Positions 1,117 to 27,396 of a stretch of DNA of 32,000 nucleotides are shown in pieces; position 1 is the first letter of the stretch, and every line of letters starts with the position of its first letter. Under the pieces are notes generated by a model, which worked only from the letters and a program-made list of their open reading frames with translations, was not told the DNA's origin and did no database searches. Source of the stretch: Phycisphaera mikurensis NBRC 102666 (GTDB lineage: Bacteria > Planctomycetota > Phycisphaerae > Phycisphaerales > Phycisphaeraceae); contig NC_017080.1 of NCBI RefSeq assembly GCF_000284115.1, forward strand, positions 3,510,001-3,542,000. Direction: 5' to 3'. A program made the translations under genes and the position numbers.

Positions 1117-1938
1117 GTGGGTGCGGTTGCCGTCGCCTTCGCCGGGAAAGCCAACCGCCCCGCCGCCGAAGCCCTGGCCGCGAGGCTGGGCCTCCCGATC
1201 GCCAAGAAGTTCCGCGATCCGCACCCGCTGCACCTGGCGTACGGGCCCGACGGCCGCCTGGGCCTCCGCGTCGTCGCCGCCGGCCACCCGCTCGCCGGCG
1301 GCCACCCCGTCGCCGCCGACCTGCTCGCGGTCGACACCTCCAGCCCCGCCGGCCGCAAGCTCGCCACGCCCTTCTTCAAGGCCATGGGCGTGCGGCGCGG
1401 CGAGCCGGCGCGCCCCCGGGTCCTCGACGCGACCGCCGGCCTCGGCGAGGACGCCTGGCTGCTCGCCAGCGCCGGCTGCCGCGTGACCGCTCTGGAGCGG
1501 AACCCCGTCGTCCTCGCCCTGCTCCAAGACGCCCTGGCCCGCGCCGCGGACCGCGAGCCCGAAACGGCCGAACGCCTCACGGTCCGCGGCGCCGAGGCCC
1601 TCGACGCGCTTCTGGCCCTGGCCGCCGGCCCCGAGGCGGACCGACCCGACGTCGTTGCGCTGGATCCCATGTTCCCGCTCGGCCGCCGCGCCACCGAACG
1701 CAAGCCGATGCGGGTGCTCCGCATGCTCGAGGAGGCCGCCGCCGACCGGGCTGGCTCCGCCGACGACGAGCCCGCCCTGCTCGCCGCCGCCCGCGCCGCC
1801 GCCCGCCGCCGCGTCGCCGTCAAACGCCCCGGCAAGGCCCCTCCGCTCGCCGGGCAAGAGCCCGACGTCGTGTTCCCCGGCAGAGCCGTCCGCCACGACG
1901 TCTACCTCACGCCCGCGGAGACGCCGCGAGCCGGCTGA
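1117..1938 (+). CDS. rsmJ: 16S rRNA (guanine1516-N2)-methyltransferase RsmJ-like SAM-dependent methyltransferase
   Basis: C-terminal part of track ORF 346..1938. GTG at 1117 lies 2 nt after the upstream stop. Motifs VLDATAGLGEDAWLLASAGCRVTALERNP, LDPMFP and VAVKRP match the RsmJ (DUF548) family. Confidence 0.8.
   Translation: MGAVAVAFAGKANRPAAEALAARLGLPIAKKFRDPHPLHLAYGPDGRLGLRVVAAGHPLAGGHPVAADLLAVDTSSPAGRKLATPFFKAMGVRRGEPARPRVLDATAGLGEDAWLLASAGCRVTALERNPVVLALLQDALARAADREPETAERLTVRGAEALDALLALAAGPEADRPDVVALDPMFPLGRRATERKPMRVLRMLEEAAADRAGSADDEPALLAAARAAARRRVAVKRPGKAPPLAGQEPDVVFPGRAVRHDVYLTPAETPRAG
1544..1589. repeat. 46-bp inverted-repeat element, copy 1 (CCGCGGACCG-N26-CGGTCCGCGG), inside the rsmJ CDS
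   Basis: Both 10-bp arms are exact (1544..1553 and 1580..1589). The arms are read in frame as A-D-R and V-R-G. Confidence 0.9.
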
Positions 1939-7993: not shown

Positions 7994-8039
7994 CCGCGGA
8001 CCGCCGCGCCGAACGCCCGCGACGCTCCGCGGTCCGCGG
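7994..8039. repeat. 46-bp inverted-repeat element, copy 2
   Basis: Arms are exact at 7994..8003 and 8030..8039. It is intergenic, 106 bp downstream of the thiC stop and 33 bp upstream of the GT9 start. Confidence 0.9.
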
Positions 8040-8144: not shown

Positions 8145-10043
8145 TCAGATGACCGAGTCGGCTTTCGAGAGCCCGTGCGCCTCGCTGGTGTCGAGCTGGA
8201 CCAACCGGTCGCCGTTGGCGAGGGCGGCCGCCTCCTTCGGCGCCACGCTCTTCGCCGCTTCGTCGTCCCCGACGTGGTCGCTGTGGCAGCGCGCCCGGCC
8301 GTCCTCGTCCGCGGGCACCAGCTTGCCCTTGGCCTTCGCCGCGAGCTTGTGGATCTCCGCCGGCGAGAGGTTGCCGCGCTGCTCGAGGATCCGCCGCTGC
8401 TCCTCGTTGAGCGCGGCGCTCTTCACCGTCCGCCCGCGGTCGAAGCCCTCGGCGAGGCCCGAGTCCCACTCGGAGATCTCCTTGCTGATGCGGACGCTGC
8501 ACCAGTCGTGGCCGCACATCGCGCAGAAGTCGGTGTCCACGTCGAGGTCCTCGTCGTGGTACGCCCGGGCCAGGTCCGGGTCGAAGGACAGGTCGAAGTG
8601 TTTCTGCCAGTTGAGGGCCGCCCGGGCCTTGGTCAGCTCGTCGTCGTTGTCCCGGGTGCCGGGGATCCCCAGCGCCACGTCGGCGGCGTGAGCCGCGATC
8701 TTGTACGCCACGCAGCCCTGCTTCACGTCGTCCTTCTTGGGCAGGCCCAGGTGCTCCTTGGGCGTGACGTAGCACAGCATCGACGCCCCGTGGTAGCCGG
8801 CCGAGGTCGCCCCGATGCAGCTGGTGATGTGGTCGTAGCCGGGGAACATGTCGGTCACCAGGGGCCCGAGCACGTAGAAGGGCGCCCCGTGGCAGAGGTG
8901 CCGCTGGGCCTTCATGTTGAACTCGATCTGGTCCAGCGGCACGTGGCCGGGGCCCTCGACCATCACCTGCACGCCGCAGCGCCAGGCACGCTCGGTCAGC
9001 TTGCCCAGCTCGACCAGCTCGGCCAGCTGCAGCTCGTCGGTGGCGTCGGCGAGGCCGCCGGGGCGGCAGCCGTCGCCGATGCTGAAGGTCACGTCGTGCT
9101 CGCGGAGGACCCCGCAGATCTTCTCCCACGACGTGTTCATCGGGTTCTCTCTCTGGTGGACCAGCATCCACTTCGCCAGCAGCGAGCCGCCGCGGGAGAC
9201 CAGGCCGATCAGCCGCTTCTTCACCAGCGGCAGGTGCGACTTGAGGATCCCGGCGTGGACCGTCATGTAGTCCACGCCCTGCTCGGCCTGGGCGCGGATG
9301 CCGTCGAGGATGATCTCCTCGTCGAGGTCTTCGATCTTCCGCCCGATGATCATCGAGTAGATCGGCACGGTGCCGATGGGCACCGTCGAGTGCGTCGTCA
9401 TCGCGACGCGGGTGGCGTCCAGGTCGCCGCCGGTGGAGAGGTCCATCACCGTGTCGGCGCCCCACTTCTCCGCCCAGCGGAGCTTGTCGACCTCCTCGTC
9501 GATCGAGGAGGAGACCGGGCTGGCGCCCATGTTCGCGTTGACCTTCGTCTTGCTGGCCCGGCCGATGGCCATCGGGTCCAGCGAGGTCTTCAGGTGGTTC
9601 TTGTTCGCCGGGATCACCATGCGGCCGGCGGCGACCTCGTCGCGGACCTGGGCCGCGCTGAGGTGCGGCTCCCGCTCGGCGACGCGCTCCATCTGCTTCG
9701 TGATCGTGCCGAGGCGCGCGTGCTCGAGCTGGGTCGACGCCTCGAAGCCGTCGGGGGCTCGCCACGAAGCGGCGTCGGCCCGGTTCGCCTCGTCGGTGCA
9801 CGTCCAGCCGGCGGGCATGAAGTCCCAGGCGGTCTTCTGCGGCAGCGGCGGCATCCCCGGCGTGTCGGGCGAGGAGAAGGTCGCCGCGCCCTCGGGGCCG
9901 GGGGCGATGGCCGGCCGGTTGGCGAAGGAGCCCGGCGTGGTGACGCCGGGCGTGTTCCCCGGGTTGCCGCCGACGGCGGGGAGCGTGTACGGGGCCGCGA
10001 CCAAGGCGGCGCGGGAGGTCGTGGGCGTGTCGTGGGGCTTCAT
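8145..10043 (-). CDS. thiC: Phosphomethylpyrimidine synthase ThiC
   Basis: 632-aa ORF with typical ThiC blocks (GTVPIYSMIIG, VDYMTVHAG, GPGHVPLDQI, GPLVTD) and the C-terminal CAMCGHDWCS Fe-S motif. A TPP riboswitch lies immediately upstream. Confidence 0.95.
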   Translation of the reverse strand: MKPHDTPTTSRAALVAAPYTLPAVGGNPGNTPGVTTPGSFANRPAIAPGPEGAATFSSPDTPGMPPLPQKTAWDFMPAGWTCTDEANRADAASWRAPDGFEASTQLEHARLGTITKQMERVAEREPHLSAAQVRDEVAAGRMVIPANKNHLKTSLDPMAIGRASKTKVNANMGASPVSSSIDEEVDKLRWAEKWGADTVMDLSTGGDLDATRVAMTTHSTVPIGTVPIYSMIIGRKIEDLDEEIILDGIRAQAEQGVDYMTVHAGILKSHLPLVKKRLIGLVSRGGSLLAKWMLVHQRENPMNTSWEKICGVLREHDVTFSIGDGCRPGGLADATDELQLAELVELGKLTERAWRCGVQVMVEGPGHVPLDQIEFNMKAQRHLCHGAPFYVLGPLVTDMFPGYDHITSCIGATSAGYHGASMLCYVTPKEHLGLPKKDDVKQGCVAYKIAAHAADVALGIPGTRDNDDELTKARAALNWQKHFDLSFDPDLARAYHDEDLDVDTDFCAMCGHDWCSVRISKEISEWDSGLAEGFDRGRTVKSAALNEEQRRILEQRGNLSPAEIHKLAAKAKGKLVPADEDGRARCHSDHVGDDEAAKSVAPKEAAALANGDRLVQLDTSEAHGLSKADSVI

Positions 10044-10111
10044 CGCGTGGGTCCTTGGGGGAGGCGCGGAGGAAGCGGGTGCGGGACGCGGCGGGTGGGC
10101 CGGTCCGGTTG

Positions 10112-10192
10112 TCGCCTTCCCTCCGCCGGTGTGATCCGGATCAGGTTCCGCGGGTGCTTCTCAGCCGGAGAGGTCCGACGCCCCGAGGCAGA
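10112..10192 (-). promoter_or_regulatory. TPP (THI-box) riboswitch in the thiC leader
   Basis: The minus strand reads CUCGGGGCGUCGGACCUCUCCGGCUGAGAAGCACCCGCGGAACCUGAUCCGGAUCACACCGGCGGAGGGAAGG. It contains the conserved CUGAGA and ACCUGAUC..GGAU...C.GGCG.AGGGA cores of the TPP aptamer, about 70 nt upstream of the thiC ATG. Confidence 0.9.
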
Positions 10193-10235
10193 AGAAAGCA
10201 TAGAGGCGGGCCCGGGCGGGTCGTACGCTGAACGC

Positions 10236-12384: not shown

Positions 12385-12430
12385 CCGCGGACCGCGGCCG
12401 ATCACGCTCGACCGAGCGGACGGTCCGCGG
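12385..12430. repeat. 46-bp inverted-repeat element, copy 3
   Basis: Arms are exact at 12385..12394 and 12421..12430. The left arm extends to the full 13-bp palindrome CCGCGGACCGCGG. It is intergenic, 93 bp downstream of the pyrE stop. Confidence 0.9.
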
Positions 12431-13053: not shown

Positions 13054-13094
13054 GGGGGGAACGTAAGGCGGGGGCGAGGGAGGGAAGAAGCGAA

Positions 13095-13150
13095 GAAGTG
13101 AGGAAGTGAGGAAGTGAGGAAGTGGGGAAGTGGGGAAGTGGGGAAGTGGG
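13095..13150. repeat. 8-bp tandem microsatellite, GAAGTGAG x3 followed by GAAGTGGG x4
   Basis: Seven head-to-tail 8-mers read directly. The unit length is not a multiple of 3. The array sits in the 232-bp divergent region between pyrE (-) and the SDR gene (+). Confidence 0.95.
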
Positions 13151-13285
13151 GACGCGAGGGGGTGGGGGCGGCGGCTGTGCCGGCCGGTTGGGGTGGGATT
13201 TGGTTTGGGCTGGAGTTCGCTCTTGTCTTTGGGTTGCGCTTGCCTGCTGAGCGGCGGGGGCGCTGGCGGGGCGTAGCCTCGCCGC

Positions 13286-14474: not shown

Positions 14475-16358
14475 TCAGCCCAGCGACCGCAGCGCCGCCT
14501 TGCAGGCCTGCCCCAGCGGGACCGCCTCGCCGCGGGGGCCTAGGGAGCCGTCCCGCGCCACCAGCTCCACCGTCGGCGTGTCGGCGGAGAGGCCCTTGTC
14601 GCCGACGACGATCCGCAGCGGGAAGCCGATCAGGTCGGCGTCCTTGAACTTGGGCCCCGGCCGCCCGTCGCGGTCGTCGATGAGCACGTCGTGCCCGGCC
14701 TCCTCCAGGCTGGCCGCCAGGTTCCGGCAGACGTCGGCGACCTGGCTGTCGGGCTCCCACGCGATCGGCGTGATGACGACCGCGTAGGGCGCGAGCGCGA
14801 CGGGCCAGATGATGCCGTCGGCGTCGTGGCCGCTCTTCTTCTCCGCGGTCGAGCGGCCGGTGCTCTCGATGGCCGAGGCGAGCACGCGGTTGACGCCGAT
14901 GCCGTAGCAGCCCATGAGCGGTGTGACGGCCGCGCCGTCGGCCCCGGCCACGGCGATGCCCAGGGCCCGCGTGTACTTGGCCCCCAGCTTGAACACCTGG
15001 CCGACCTCGATGCCGCGCGAGGCCACGAGCGTGGGCCCGCCGTCGCCGGCGACCGCCCCGGGGGCGGGGTCGCCCGCGAGCGCGTTGCGGAGGTCCAGGA
15101 CGGCGAAGCGGTCGGCGGGGAGGTGGTCGGTGAGGTCGCGGCCCCAGTGGAAGTGCTTGGCGTGGGCGTCGGGCCGGTTGGCGCCGACGACCCAGAAGCC
15201 GCCGTGCGCCGCGTCGAAGTCGACGGCGACGGCGGTGTCGCCGCGGCCGGCCGCGGCGTGCGGGCCCACCGAGCCCAGCGGGAAGCCCGCGGCTTGGGCC
15301 TCCTCCTCGGGGGCGAGGCGCGCGAGCGCACCCGGGCCGTGGAAGCGCTCGGCGGCGGCCTTGAGCTTCTCGTCGTTGAGCTGGTGGTCGCCGCGGACCG
15401 CGACCAAAAGGAAGCGCAAACCGCCGCGGTCCGCGGAATCGGGCGGCTCGGCGTCCTCGGGCGGCTCCATCATGCAGACGAGCGTCTTGAGCGTGTTCTT
15501 CGCGGCGAGCTTCGAGCCCAGCTCCTTCTTGAAGAAGGCGGTGACCTCCTCGATGGAGCCCACGCCGGGCGTCTCCACCTCCTCCAGGCCGCCCGTCGGC
15601 TCCTGGGTGAGGTCGCTGGGCCGCTCGCCGGTCGCGGCCTTCTCCTCGTTGGCGGCGTACGCCCCGTCGGTGGAGCGGAAGACGGTGTCCTCGCCGGTCG
15701 GCGTGAGCACGGTGAACTGGTGGCTGGCCCGGCCGCCCATCTCGCCGGTCTCGGCCTCGACGACGGCGTAGTCGAGCCCGCACCGCTCGAAGATCCGCTC
15801 GTAGGCGGCGTACTGCGCCCGGTAGGTCTCGTCGAGCCCGCCCTCGCCGTCGGCGGTGGCGTGGAAGCTGTAGCCGTCCTTCATCAGGAACTCCCGCGAC
15901 CGCAGCACCCCGAAGCGCGGCCGGAACTCGTCGCGGAACTTGGTCTGGATCTGGTAGACGTTGCGGGGCAGGTCCTTGTAGGAGGACAGGGTCGCGCCCA
16001 CGAGGTCGGCCACGGCCTCCTCGGCGGTCGGCGCGAGCGCCGCCTCGCGGCCGTGGCGGTCGTTGACCACGAAGAGGTTCGCGCCGTACGCCGCGCGGCG
16101 GCCGGTGCGCTCCCACAGCGAGATCGGCTGCAGGCACGGCAGGCTGACTTCGACGGCTCCGGCGGCGTGCTGCTCCTCGCGGATGATCCGCTCCACCTTC
16201 CGCAGGCTCCGCAGCCCCAGCGGCAGGTAGCCGTACGAGCCCGAGCCGAGCCGGCGGACCAGCCCGGCCCGCAGCATCAGCCGGTGCGAGGGCACCTCGG
16301 CGTCGGCGGGGGCTTCGCGGAGGGTGGGGGCGAGGGTTCTCGACCAGAAGTCAGGCAT
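14475..16358 (-). CDS. proS: Proline--tRNA ligase (bacterial type with INS editing domain)
   Basis: Start at MPDFWSRTLAPTLREAP (ATG 16358). Class II motifs (FRDE.RPRFG..R.REF.MKD.YSF; GCYGIG..R) and the VRGDHQLNDEKL block are present. The upstream part of track ORF 14475..17804 is a GC artefact. Confidence 0.95.
   Translation of the reverse strand: MPDFWSRTLAPTLREAPADAEVPSHRLMLRAGLVRRLGSGSYGYLPLGLRSLRKVERIIREEQHAAGAVEVSLPCLQPISLWERTGRRAAYGANLFVVNDRHGREAALAPTAEEAVADLVGATLSSYKDLPRNVYQIQTKFRDEFRPRFGVLRSREFLMKDGYSFHATADGEGGLDETYRAQYAAYERIFERCGLDYAVVEAETGEMGGRASHQFTVLTPTGEDTVFRSTDGAYAANEEKAATGERPSDLTQEPTGGLEEVETPGVGSIEEVTAFFKKELGSKLAAKNTLKTLVCMMEPPEDAEPPDSADRGGLRFLLVAVRGDHQLNDEKLKAAAERFHGPGALARLAPEEEAQAAGFPLGSVGPHAAAGRGDTAVAVDFDAAHGGFWVVGANRPDAHAKHFHWGRDLTDHLPADRFAVLDLRNALAGDPAPGAVAGDGGPTLVASRGIEVGQVFKLGAKYTRALGIAVAGADGAAVTPLMGCYGIGVNRVLASAIESTGRSTAEKKSGHDADGIIWPVALAPYAVVITPIAWEPDSQVADVCRNLAASLEEAGHDVLIDDRDGRPGPKFKDADLIGFPLRIVVGDKGLSADTPTVELVARDGSLGPRGEAVPLGQACKAALRSLG
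15391..15436. repeat. 46-bp inverted-repeat element, copy 4, inside the proS CDS
   Basis: Arms are exact at 15391..15400 and 15427..15436. On the coding (minus) strand the arms read S-A-D-R-G and A-V-R-G-D. Confidence 0.9.
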
Positions 16359-17423: not shown

Positions 17424-17452
17424 GCCCCGCGGAGCCGGCCGCCGCCGCATAA

Positions 17453-17472
17453 GCAAGAGCAAGAGCAAGAGC
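17453..17472. repeat. Hexanucleotide repeat (GCAAGA)x3 plus a partial unit
   Basis: gcaagagcaagagcaagagc read directly. It abuts the left arm of 46-bp element copy 5. Confidence 0.8.
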
Positions 17473-17517
17473 CGCGGACCGGGGTCCCGCGCGTTCCTGG
17501 TCCGGCACGGTCCGCGG
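17472..17517. repeat. 46-bp inverted-repeat element, copy 5
   Basis: Arms are exact at 17472..17481 and 17508..17517. It lies 49 bp downstream of the amidase stop. Confidence 0.9.
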
Positions 17518-17869
17518 AGAGCGTTCCCGCTCGCGCGGCGGGTGGAGGCGGCGAGCCGGGTTTCAGCGTCGCGGCACCGCGAGCGCGCGGCGTCACGAGC
17601 GGTGGTGGGGCAAATCTGATGGCGTGGCTGAGCTTTGCGCTTGGCAGCCGCTGCGGAATGGTTACAGTGACCGCATCCATTGCCCGATGGTTTTCGGGCA
17701 CCCTTTGTGCCGCATCCCGACCTGGAAACCACTGCTTCGGCATGACGGATGTCCCGTGGTTTCGACAAAGGGCACGGCGACGTGCTGGAAGCGGGTGTAC
17801 GCACCCCGCCCCCTTCCGATCCGCCCCACCCGGTGGACCCGACGGAACCCCGGGACCTGAGCAGCGCCG

Positions 17870-19952: not shown

Positions 19953-20962
19953 GCCGGGCCACGCCTCCTCCCGCCGCGGCGAGCCTCCCGCCCTTCGTCT
20001 ACGACCCGGCGTACGTGACGCCGCTGCCGCCGGGGCACCGCTTCCCGATGCCGAAGTTCGGCCACCTGCACGACCACCTCGCGGCGGTCGGCCTGCTCGG
20101 CCCGGGCAACCTCCACCGGCCCGAGCCCGCGGCGGTCGAGACGCTCGGGCGGGCGCACGACCCGGCGTACGCCGATGCCTTCCTCTCCGGTCGGCTCGAC
20201 CGCGACGCGCTCCGCACGCTCGGCCTGCCGTGGTCCGCGGGCCTCGCGGCCCGGACGGTCACCGCCCTTGGCGGCACCGTGCTCGCCGCCCGCCTCGCGC
20301 TGCGGCACGGCCTCGCCGCCAATCTGGCCGGCGGCACGCACCACGCCCACCGCGGGCACGGGGCCGGCTTCTGCATCTTCAACGACCTCGCCGTCGCCGC
20401 GCTCACGCTGCTCGAGGAAGACGCCGTGGACCAGGTCCTCATCGTCGACCTCGACGTGCACCAGGGGGACGGCACCGCCCGGATCCTGCGCCACGAGCCG
20501 CGGGCGTTCACGCTCTCGGTGCACTGCGCCTCGAACTACCCCGCCCGCAAAGCCCGCAGCGACCTCGACGTCCCGCTGCCGGACGGGCTGGGCGACGCCG
20601 GGTACCTCCGCGTGCTCGGGCACGGCGACGAAGCCTCCGGCTTCCGCGGCCTCGGCTGGCTGCTGGAGCAGGTCGAGCCCGATCTCGTGCTCTACGACGC
20701 CGGGGTCGACGTGCACGCCGACGACAAGCTCGGCCGGCTCGCGATGACCGACGCCGGCCTCCGCGAGCGCGACCGCGCCGTGCTCGAAGCCTGCCGCGGG
20801 CAGGGCGTGCCGGTCGCGTGCGTCATCGGCGGCGGCTACGGCGACGACCGGGTGGCGCTGGCGCAGCGGCACGGCATCCTGCACGAAGAGGTCGCCCGGC
20901 GGTGGCGGGCGGAGCGGGCGCGGGACGCGTCGCGGACCGCGGCGGCCCGGAGCCTCCCGTGA
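19949..20962 (+). CDS. Histone deacetylase-family protein (HDAC/AcuC-like); start codon uncertain
   Basis: FVYDPAYVTPLPPGHRFPMPKF, GGTHHAHRGHGAGFCIFND, DLDVHQGDG and GGGY are class-defining motifs. There is no in-frame ATG/GTG upstream of the conserved N-terminus. The only candidate is CTG at 19949, which overlaps the upstream TGA. Confidence 0.8.
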   Translation: MSRATPPPAAASLPPFVYDPAYVTPLPPGHRFPMPKFGHLHDHLAAVGLLGPGNLHRPEPAAVETLGRAHDPAYADAFLSGRLDRDALRTLGLPWSAGLAARTVTALGGTVLAARLALRHGLAANLAGGTHHAHRGHGAGFCIFNDLAVAALTLLEEDAVDQVLIVDLDVHQGDGTARILRHEPRAFTLSVHCASNYPARKARSDLDVPLPDGLGDAGYLRVLGHGDEASGFRGLGWLLEQVEPDLVLYDAGVDVHADDKLGRLAMTDAGLRERDRAVLEACRGQGVPVACVIGGGYGDDRVALAQRHGILHEEVARRWRAERARDASRTAAARSLP

Positions 20963-20975
20963 CCGCGGTCCGCGG
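20930..20975. repeat. 46-bp inverted-repeat element, copy 6 (left arm TCGCGGACCG, one mismatch)
   Basis: Arms at 20930..20939 and 20966..20975. It straddles the HDAC stop codon (20960..20962) and ends 17 bp before the sufE ATG. Confidence 0.8.
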
Positions 20976-24002: not shown

Positions 24003-24048
24003 TCCGCGGACCGACGCCCGCTCCAGCCGAAAAACCCGGCGGTCCGCG
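24003..24048. repeat. 46-bp inverted-repeat element, copy 7
   Basis: Arms are exact at 24003..24012 and 24039..24048. It starts 13 bp after the neuB stop. Confidence 0.9.
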
Positions 24049-24127
24049 GGTAAACTCCGCCGCCGGCCGGCGTGTGCCCGGCCGCCTGATCCGCCCGCGT
24101 TCCGCAGCCTCCGCGACCCACTCCCCG

Positions 24128-24371: not shown

Positions 24372-24840
24372 GCTCATCCACCCCGTGGATGTCGCGGCGG
24401 ATGCGAGCGGCGGAGGTTGTCGGCCCGGCACGGGGCGCATGGTGCACGGGCTGTTGCTGCTCCGTGCAGCTTCTACATCGACGGAGTCGATGAGCCACCC
24501 GTGGAGGGGCGGACCGAAGCGGCGGAGGTTGTCGGCCCGGTGCGGGGCGCATGGCGCACGGGCTGTTTCTGGCCCGTTCAGCTTCTACATCGACGGAGTC
24601 GATGAGCCACCCGTGGAGGGGCGGACCGAAGCGGCGGAGGTTGTCGGCCCGGTGCGGGGCGCATGGCGCACGGGCTGTTTCTGGCCCGTTCAGCTTCTAC
24701 ATCGACGGAGTCGATGAGCCACCCGTGGAGGGGCGGACCGAAGCGGCGGAGGTTGTCGGCCCGGTGCGGGGCGCATGGCGCATGGGCTGGTTCTGCTCCG
24801 TGCAGCTTCTACATCGACGGAGTCGATGAGCCACCCGTGG
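24372..24840. repeat. Tandem array of a 112-bp unit, about 4.1 copies
   Basis: Units lie at about 24372..24491 (diverged), 24492..24603, 24604..24715 (identical to the previous unit), 24716..24827 (5 substitutions) and a partial unit at 24828..24840. Because 112 is not a multiple of 3, each copy is in a different frame. Confidence 0.95.
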
Positions 24841-27219: not shown

Positions 27220-27230
27220 TCGTCCTCATG

Positions 27231-27303
27231 CTCCCCGAGCTGGGCTCGAACCAGCGACCTAGCGATTAACAGTCGCGCGCTCTACCAACTGAGCTATCGG
27301 GGA
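27231..27303 (-). tRNA. tRNA-Asn (anticodon GTT)
   Basis: The minus strand reads TCCCCGATAGCTCAGTTGGTAGAGCGCGCGACTGTTAATCGCTAGGTCGCTGGTTCGAGCCCAGCTCGGGGAG. It has a 7-bp acceptor stem, D arm GCTC/GAGC, anticodon loop CTGTTAA and T loop TTCGAGC. CCA is not encoded. Confidence 0.95.
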
Positions 27304-27350: not shown

Positions 27351-27396
27351 CCGCGGACGGCGGACCCGGAAGCGGCCCGGGGGCCGCGGTCCGCGG
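27351..27396. repeat. 46-bp inverted-repeat element, copy 8 (left arm CCGCGGACGG, one mismatch)
   Basis: Arms at 27351..27360 and 27387..27396. It ends 4 bp from the GH30 stop and lies 48 bp upstream of the tRNA-Asn 5' end. Confidence 0.8.

Follow-up and report, generated by a model that had tools for sequence, protein, structure and literature searches.

The 32,000-nt stretch of the Phycisphaera mikurensis NBRC 102666 chromosome analyzed here (NC_017080.1, positions 3,510,001 to 3,542,000; hereafter the window, whose own coordinates are used below) carries on its minus strand, at 14475-16358, the gene proS, inside which lies a 46-bp inverted repeat that is the subject of this work. The 627-amino-acid product of proS is 100% identical to P. 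mikurensis WP_014438342.1 (proline--tRNA ligase). It is a bacterial-type prolyl-tRNA synthetase (ProRS) with an INS editing domain: it contains the catalytic, editing and anticodon-binding domains (Pfam tRNA-synt_2b, PF00587; tRNA_edit, PF04073; HGTP_anticodon, PF03129) as well as the VRGDH..N..K block, and it can be aligned to PDB entries 2J3L and 5UCM.

The element occupies positions 15391-15436 and reads on the plus strand CCGCGGACCGCG ACCAAAAGGAAGCGCAAACCGC CGCGGTCCGCGG, i.e., CCGCGGACCGCG-N22-CGCGGTCCGCGG, the two 12-nt arms (15391-15402 and 15425-15436) being exact reverse complements of each other. An earlier note on this DNA had put the spacing of the arms at exactly 36 nt. This is correct for the 10-nt cores, CCGCGGACCG (15391-15400) and CGGTCCGCGG (15427-15436), and for the pentapeptides that the arms encode, but not for the 12-mers, which are 34 nt apart. 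A single arm is itself a near-palindrome, CCGCGG-W-CCGCGG, and GCGG[A/T]CCGCGGC is therefore also found as a direct repeat at a distance of 33 nt (11 codons). On the coding (minus) strand, which runs ...PDSADRGGLRFLLVAVRGDHQLNDEKL... across the site, the upstream arm is read as S308-A-D-R-G312 (TCC GCG GAC CGC GGC, 15423-15437) and falls in an acidic loop of the editing domain that varies in length, while the downstream arm is read as A320-V-R-G-D324 (GCG GTC CGC GGC GAC, 15387-15401) and belongs to the conserved VRGDH block. Rare T-rich codons occupy the interior (GGT313 TTG314 CGC TTC CTT317 TTG318, 15405-15422). The sequence and the codons thus agree with the original description of an in-frame copy whose arms are translated as S-A-D-R-G and A-V-R-G-D.

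The proS element has numerous counterparts in the region. When the window was searched for the 12-mer with at most one mismatch, 21 matches were retrieved against 5.5 expected, and none of 100 shuffled sequences contained as many. Eight full copies with no more than one mismatch per core are present, two beyond those retrieved by a search for exact arms; the proS copy is the only one that has no mismatches over both 12-mers. A second intragenic copy, at 1544-1589, lies in rsmJ (1117-1938, plus strand), and a copy at 20930-20975 overlaps the stop codon of a histone-deacetylase-like gene. The remaining copies are intergenic and are located at 7994-8039, 12385-12430, 17472-17517 (48 nt past the stop codon of an amidase gene), 24004-24049 (13 nt past a stop codon) and 27351-27396 (3 nt past a stop codon). 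The last one lies beside a tRNA-Asn (GTT) gene found on the minus strand at 27230-27303, 47 nt away.

Flanks taken from a second P. mikurensis assembly extended the window to a 51.5-kb stretch (L090 + window + L089; window coordinates -9759 to 35245). Thirteen copies, about one per 4 kb, are found there; eight are intergenic and five contact coding sequence, four of the latter being wholly intragenic. Gaps between successive copies range from 2.1 to 6.5 kb with a coefficient of variation of 0.33, and only ca. 1 in 1000 random intergenic placements is as regular. In 83 kb of sequence from P. mikurensis and close relatives, the core-to-core offset was 36 in 15 pairs and 35 in one. Overall, 85-90% of cores were paired at offset 36, and solo cores were no commoner than expected by chance. 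As a chance background, species-representative genomes amounting to 596 Gb, which evidently do not include the source genome and contained no Phycisphaera match, were scanned with the exact 10+N26+10 pattern. The scan returned 26 matches, each of them single and in unrelated high-GC organisms; six exact copies in the 32-kb window are therefore beyond chance. A chance origin of the family as a whole is refuted. Viral contigs gave no match to the exact pattern, and metagenome matches were concentrated in a single marine assembly. No Rfam family matched at either the gathering or the E-value threshold, and literature searches revealed no description of the family, which appears to be undescribed so far, although the kind of object it represents, a genomic motif superimposed on coding sequence, is already known.

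Of 40 intergenic copies, about 17 begin within the 1-15 nt that follow a stop codon. Intergenic copies turn over between species while their density is maintained. Three of four species, for example, have a copy between the amidase gene and the neighboring kinase gene, but its positions in them defy alignment, and the copy that runs over the stop codon of the histone-deacetylase-like gene is found in P. mikurensis only; an argument for conservation based on intergenic orthology was accordingly abandoned. We also considered avoidance or enrichment caused by restriction-modification, since the arm is a union of the SacII (CCGCGG) and RsrII (CGGWCCG) sites, and rejected it: CCGCGG occurs 120 times, compared with 127 expected.

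Alignment of the copies yields the consensus CCGCGGACCG-YSG-...T-tract...T-tract...-CSR-CGGTCCGCGG. The cores are nearly invariant; complementarity between the two halves extends to about position 13 and then drops to the background level. In 138 kb of sequence, 17 copies were perfect, five had a single one-sided mismatch and none had compensated changes, which indicates that the core sequence is conserved beyond what mere pairing demands. When copies were oriented solely by their T-versus-A content, T peaks became apparent at element positions 17-20 and 27-28, separated by a G/C trough (permutation p < 2e-4). The two T-tracts are on one strand, about one helical turn apart, and since they stand at mirror positions, they oppose pairing. 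A loose GTTTCGGC box recurs in many interiors, and the flanks show A-N before and N-T after the element. The T-rich strand has no relation to the direction of the adjacent gene (ca. five sense and ca. nine antisense among stop-proximal copies). A bias with respect to the replication strand, suggested by 10 of 12 copies lying on one strand in the window and the close relative L084, was dropped after it disappeared over the 51.5-kb stretch (five plus, six minus).

The origin of the proS copy was traced by codon alignment of P. mikurensis proS with proS DNA from four close relatives, L084, L003, L001 and L004. In P. mikurensis, the site reads GAT TCC GCG GAC CGC GGC GGT TTG CGC TTC CTT TTG GTC GCG GTC CGC GGC GAC, and in L084, whose ProRS is 92% identical at the amino acid level and which groups with P. 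mikurensis as its sister with 80% bootstrap support, it reads GAA TCC GCG GAC CGT GAC CGA ATC CGC TTC CTT TTG GTC GCG GTC CGC GGC GAC, with both cores exact and the spacing unchanged. The complete copy is common to these two only. L003 (ACC GCG GAC GGC GGC GGC CCG CGT TTC CTG CTG GCC GTG GTC CGC GGG) has one mismatch per core (9/10) at the same spacing, and only the outer eight bases of each arm pair. The left arm is missing from L001 because the loop there is four codons shorter (right side GTG GTG GTC CGC GGC), and L004 has a GDGDGD loop in its place (right side GTC GTC CGT GGC). Loss of the upstream arm from close relatives that keep the RGD arm had been named in the earlier note as a sign of coincidence. 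This pattern is seen in L001 and L004, which lack the upstream arm and retain most of the RGD arm, but not in L084, which keeps both.

The peptide R-F-L-L-V-x-V-R-G-D-H is present in all four relatives, in 125 Phycisphaerae homologues, and in 2J3L and 5UCM. The right 27 nt of the element, which encode RFLLVAVRG, are thus ancestral coding sequence, and the V-R-G codons alone supply 9 of the 10 core bases, also in relatives that have no element. The left arm, in turn, lies in a loop whose length varies among close relatives and which amounts to an 11-residue insertion relative to Enterococcus faecalis ProRS. Both suppositions made earlier about the protein are borne out by these comparisons: the RGD arm is under protein constraint, the VRGDH..N..K block being kept throughout the homologues and the two structures, and the partner arm sits in a less constrained stretch. 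Since the right half is ancestral and the left half lies in a loop of variable length, insertion of a 46-bp unit is excluded. The proS copy is almost certainly a genuine member of the family, and the alignments indicate, with similarly high confidence, that it was built in place by point substitutions.

Several features of proS suggest fitting at the nucleotide level. Ahead of V-R-G-D, 123 of the 125 homologues have V, I or M, and only P. mikurensis and L084 have A; the derived GTG-to-GCG change responsible (V-to-A, A320) brings the core to 10/10. Only 12 of the 627 proS codons end in A or T, and codons 313-318 hold both TTG codons of the gene, its only CTT and one of its two GGT (permutation p = 0.0015). 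Through these rare codons, T-tracts come to lie at element positions 17-19 and 28-31, i.e., at the T peaks of the family. In the 9027 codons of the window, 0.004 occurrences of the peptide pattern ADR-x9-VRG would be expected, and two were seen; given the proS peptides, the codon usage of the window would produce both cores with a probability of 0.012. Taken together with the 26 matches in 596 Gb, these values uphold the initial judgment that coincidence is very unlikely. The proS genes of P. mikurensis and L084, however, are 90% identical at the nucleotide level, with synonymous differences in 20% of shared codons. At this identity, 20 unchanged bases are expected about once in eight cases, and proS alone is therefore no proof of purifying selection on the arms.

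The rsmJ copy provided a stronger comparison. It is read as A-D-R-E-P-E-T-A-E-R-L-T-V-R-G and aligns without gaps to 40 homologues (consensus at this place RAAx..P[ED][IV][AT]xRITL); this copy, too, therefore had its origin in place. Four species (RsmJ 72-85% identical to that of P. mikurensis) have exact cores, and a fifth lacks them. In the codon alignment of the four species, third positions are invariant in 32% of columns and codons are identical in 35% of the columns with an invariant amino acid. At 14 nt each, the two arms exceed every other invariant nucleotide run in the gene, and all eight interior codons between them are variable. The probability that all six arm codons would be invariant, matched for amino acid, is 1.8e-4. 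In rsmJ, the arm nucleotides are constrained beyond what the protein and codon bias require, and the data for proS are suggestive of the same. The claim of selection on the nucleotide motif in addition to coding constraint, put forward for proS in the earlier note, is thus sustained mainly by the rsmJ arms, the V-to-A change and the rare-codon cluster, while retention of the arms in proS by itself lacks power. Selection for a function is indistinguishable here from a fixation bias (molecular drive).

Two further intragenic copies are located in the flanks of the window, one in the C-terminal tail of an ABC ATPase (ADRREEAPETDAVRG; L090:69-114, window coordinate -9759) and the other in a linker of a Na/H-exchanger/zf-UBP protein (ADRGPGSAETPAVRG; L089:11796-11841, window coordinate 32494). 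Both use the A-D-R...V-R-G frame and have rare GAA, GGT or GGA codons in the interior. All four intragenic copies of P. mikurensis, on both strands, are in the frame CC GCG GAC CG...CG GTC CGC GG, which maps onto itself on the opposite strand because 46 is 3n+1. Together with an intragenic copy from a marine-metagenome relative in the same frame (L035:370-415, SADRGHVEALGDAVRG, in the C-terminal part of an enzyme-like open reading frame), they bear out the prediction that any in-frame copy reads A-D-R...V-R-G on whichever strand is coding. Chance matches in other genomes favor the same frame, so the frame is dictated by codon usage. Of 32 interior codons in the four P. mikurensis copies, 10 end in A or T, compared with 3.4% in genes of the window (p = 7e-8). 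GAA AC(G/C), encoding E-T, occurs in the interiors of three of these copies (1544-1589, L090:69-114 and L089:11796-11841) and is the coding-strand image of the GTTTC box of the family; in rsmJ, the T of this dipeptide stands in place of the I or V of distant homologues.

Folding predictions were made for the intragenic copies. The proS copy is predicted to form a 14-bp stem of -31 kcal/mol, made of the 12-mers, one G-U pair and one further G-C pair. In the orthologous copy of L084, the diverged left interior (CGT GAC CGA ATC) is complementary to the constrained CTT TTG GTC GCG, and the predicted stem accordingly lengthens to 18 bp (-40 kcal/mol, z = -4.3). The rsmJ copy of the sister species L085 can form a perfect 16-bp stem by means of rare AGG and CGT codons. 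One intergenic copy was compared between contigs L001 (5572-5617) and L002 (131-176), which encode identical ProRS proteins and are ca. 99% identical in the flanks of this copy: 10 of its 26 interior positions differ, plus a few bases outside, which makes it a local mutation hot spot centered on the element. Such clustered interior changes, several of which raise complementarity, are consistent with template switching inside an inverted repeat; they show that folding back has effects, even though the folded form may not be the one selected.

The family is best read as a genomic signal, lineage-specific to P. mikurensis and its close relatives, and not as a transposon: it is restricted to this lineage, occurs far above chance, arose in place where this can be followed and has a frame bias in genes, as an uptake-like signal would. 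We consider it probable, by a modest step beyond an even chance, that the working form is duplex DNA, that both arms at their fixed distance are recognized by an oligomeric protein, and that the copies evolved where they now stand. The arm sequence, the fixed distance, the phased T-tracts, the indifference to strand, the even spacing and the turnover all point to such duplex recognition. A protein of this kind would read the base sequence of both arms; their centers are 33 bp or about three helical turns apart, and the two phased T-tracts between them would aid bending. Copies would accumulate and turn over in place through selection or fixation bias, as do DNA uptake sequences, Chi and HIP1. 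At proS, the V-R-G codons (GTC CGC GGN) provided nine of the ten bases of one arm beforehand, and the neighboring acidic loop was able to take A-D-R (GCG GAC CGN) exactly 36 nt upstream; completion of the site was paid for with a V-to-A replacement at a position that is elsewhere hydrophobic and with several rare T-rich codons. Assembly of this sort took place independently in rsmJ, the ABC ATPase tail and the Na/H-exchanger linker, each time in the only frame that permits preferred codons throughout both arms. The inverted repeat folds back when single-stranded, which would explain the lineage-specific inward extension of stems and the clustered interior changes.

A number of observations weigh against duplex recognition. 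No binding protein was identified. The even spacing rests on one 51-kb region and is fainter in the shorter contigs of relatives, and many copies stand 1-15 nt past stop codons, as a role at the level of the transcript would predict. The comparative test in proS is weak, as a complete copy is present in one relative only and the left arm is entirely lacking in two, and the data do not tell purifying selection from concerted evolution through gene conversion. The stems that extend beyond the cores (18 bp in L084 proS and 16 bp in L085 rsmJ) suggest that the folded single strand may itself matter, and the divergence of interiors between L001 and L002 is not predicted by a simple binding-site model.

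If the hairpin were the working form, be it as RNA, with a part in 3'-end protection, termination or processing, or as single-stranded DNA to which a hairpin-binding enzyme, for instance a HUH/Y1 protein, attaches, the proS and rsmJ copies would be tolerated or regulatory hairpins in messages. We regard this as unlikely, though it accounts for several results. Predicted stems are stable (-31 to -43 kcal/mol, z down to -4.3), pairing reaches positions 11-13 family-wide and 14-18 bp in intragenic copies, where it runs through rare codons, and the proximity of ca. 17 of 40 intergenic copies to a stop codon (within 15 nt) recalls E. coli repetitive extragenic palindromic (REP) sequences, reported to lie close behind stop codons, mainly downstream of genes and with some copies intragenic (PMC3733652). 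Pair 11:36, moreover, is T:G 12 times and C:A once in copies oriented by the T-rich strand. It is the only covarying pair, and the cores contain no compensated double changes, which is why covariation was discarded as evidence for RNA; with no Rfam match either, the family does not behave as a structured RNA. The offset is fixed at 36, also in copies that evolved in place, whereas stems range between 10 and 18 bp in length; loop size is accordingly not what stays constant. Nor do the copies resemble intrinsic terminators: no T-run (U-tract in RNA) follows the right arm, some copies are intragenic, and the T-rich interior faces either way near stop codons and is mixed along the chromosome. A premature terminator in two housekeeping genes would also be costly. 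That the repeats are a functionless mutational by-product, in which, given a partial inverted repeat to start from, replicative template switching in quasi-palindromes copies one arm onto the other, makes the repeat perfect, extends it and scrambles the loop, we consider improbable. Such a process would account for the left interior of proS, where 8 of 12 adjacent bases differ between L084 and P. mikurensis and four of the differences create complementarity to the right side, for the extra 12 nt relative to L001 (TCC GCG GAC CGC), which are nearly the exact reverse complement of the RGD arm, and for the clustered interior changes between near-identical strains. It leaves unexplained the convergence of unrelated loci on a single 10-nt sequence and a single 36-nt distance, the presence of phased T-tracts, which oppose pairing, and why cores are invariant in four species while the adjoining stem extensions vary.

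The two remaining explanations fare worse. A miniature mobile element inserted in frame in proS, of the kind represented by Rickettsia palindromic elements, Correia elements or REPINs mobilized by a REP-associated tyrosine transposase (RAYT), would agree with the high copy number, the mostly intergenic location, the resemblance of the arms to terminal inverted repeats and the GTTTCGGC box common to many interiors, and a RAYT-like Y1 transposase gene is present in the sister species (L085 14062-14718, PF01797, E = 1e-5). However, the right 27 nt of the proS copy are ancestral and the rsmJ alignment is free of gaps, 46 is not divisible by 3, no target-site duplication is visible, interiors of separate copies are not homologous, a GTAG or CGTC tag is absent, and the repeat that borders the RAYT-like gene is a different one of its own, GTACCCGCCTGCGGCCCGCAGGCG. 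Judging from the alignments, transposition of the intragenic copies is excluded, and the mobile-element explanation as a whole is very improbable. Coincidence, by which high-GC codon usage would have put A-D-R and V-R-G 12 codons apart in proS, is hardly tenable. The arm codons are all preferred ones, relatives devoid of the element already have nine of the ten RGD-arm bases, and of five chance matches that fall in genes of unrelated high-GC genomes, four are in the same frame. But the expectation of ca. 0.004 peptide pairs in the window has to be multiplied by about 0.01-0.025 for the codons, four intragenic copies in 51.5 kb stand against 26 exact matches in 596 Gb elsewhere, the V-to-A change and the rare-codon cluster match the family interior, and the rsmJ arms are invariant in four species.

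A farther-reaching possibility, which the sequence data allow us to raise only tentatively, is that the 46-bp sites constitute a new chromosome-wide signal, each being a bend-prone duplex site with two arms, serving a dedicated protein and needed about every 4 kb. The protein could be architectural, a loader, or a receptor for self-marking or uptake. If so, the site would be written into essential genes wherever codons permit, at the cost of conserved-core residues and rare codons, and a long (46-bp) bipartite DNA signal would prove superimposable on essential genes by ordinary point mutation. The reshaping of genes would be measurable, as V-to-A beside the ProRS RGD block, as positioned rare codons and as A-D-R...V-R-G in unrelated proteins, and the family would offer a clean natural system for overlapping constraint at the DNA and protein levels. 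Annotation would have to be made with caution, because conserved synonymous sites and odd codons would here not be translational signals. The sites would also provide a handle on a new DNA-binding system in Planctomycetota, for which few genetic tools exist.

Other repeats and noncoding features were noted along the way. Multiple palindromic copies of GTACCCGCCTGCGGCCCGCAGGCG surround the RAYT-like gene of L085, which is on the minus strand (L085:13590-14860); the layout is that of a classical REP/RAYT system and has nothing to do with the 46-bp family, and a link between the family and this transposase was rejected since the gene carries its own repeat. A 21-nt tandem repeat (CGACGTGTTTC..TTTCA.GT, ca. 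seven or more copies) lies beside the gene at L085:14846-15055. In the window, a noncoding block at 17650-17800, upstream of the Ser/Thr kinase gene (GGTTACAGTG..CATCCATTGCCCG.TGGTT.CGGGCACCTTTGTGCCG.ATCCCGACC...), is conserved in four species, the remainder of the spacer being unalignable; it had no Rfam match even at E = 1. Purine-rich tandem repeats are present in spacers at 13076-13152 (GAGGAAGT x9.6) and at 17452-17472 (AGCAAG x3.5), the latter abutting the copy at 17472, and relatives have other simple repeats (CACAGAGG) in that same spacer. A 112-bp tandem repeat (3.9 copies, 96% identity) lies at 24406-24840 between two convergent genes. A TPP (thiamine pyrophosphate) riboswitch (Rfam RF00059, 66 bits) was found on the minus strand at 10101-10195, upstream of a ThiC-family gene at 8145-10043.

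By analogy, the behavior of the family appears nearest to that of DNA uptake sequences, Chi and HIP1, while its appearance and, less clearly, its location resemble those of REP sequences and bacterial interspersed mosaic elements (BIMEs). Like the uptake signal sequences (USS) of Haemophilus and the DNA uptake sequences (DUS) of Neisseria, it is a lineage-specific motif that occurs every few kilobases and evolves in place without transposition, with many copies intragenic in preferred frames, which yield recurrent peptides, in both orientations and at even spacing. Helically phased AT-tracts follow the USS core, and USS between genes are often paired in inverted orientation right behind a gene. 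USS and DUS, however, are single 9-12-mers, whereas the 46-bp family is an obligatory inverted pair with a 36-nt offset whose solo arms are at the chance level. HIP1 of cyanobacteria (GCGATCGC) and Chi are likewise over-represented and kept in coding sequence by codon choice, but they are 8-mers with neither a partner nor a spacing rule, in contrast to a 46-bp composite of two arms and interior T-tracts. Neisseria dRS3 (ATTCCC-N8-GGGAAT), which has hundreds of copies, shares the design of short conserved inverted arms around a variable core of fixed length; it is 20 bp long, lies between genes and is a target of recombination or integration, and the 46-bp family differs from it in length and in having intragenic copies. 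Rickettsia palindromic elements (RPEs) and in-frame miniature inverted-repeat transposable elements (MITEs) are also palindromes placed in frame in essential genes, at surface loops of the products. An RPE adds 30-50 residues of its own, while the 46-bp copies add none, their interior being native coding sequence: proS and rsmJ have gained no length, the interiors are not homologous and no target-site duplication is visible. REP, BIME and REPIN sequences are, like this family, palindromic, present in high copy number and able to form hairpins; they stand mostly just past stop codons, with some copies intragenic (PMC3733652). Of the 13 P. mikurensis copies, 8 are intergenic, and many copies lie within 15 nt of a stop codon, but 4 are wholly intragenic. 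A cognate RAYT gene flanked by the 46-bp repeat was not found in the 51.5 kb covered for P. mikurensis, and the gene of L085 has a different repeat. Unlike REP and REPIN sequences, the 46-bp family has no GTAG or CGTC in its flank profile, its interior of 20-26 nt is poorly conserved, and its intragenic copies are not insertions.

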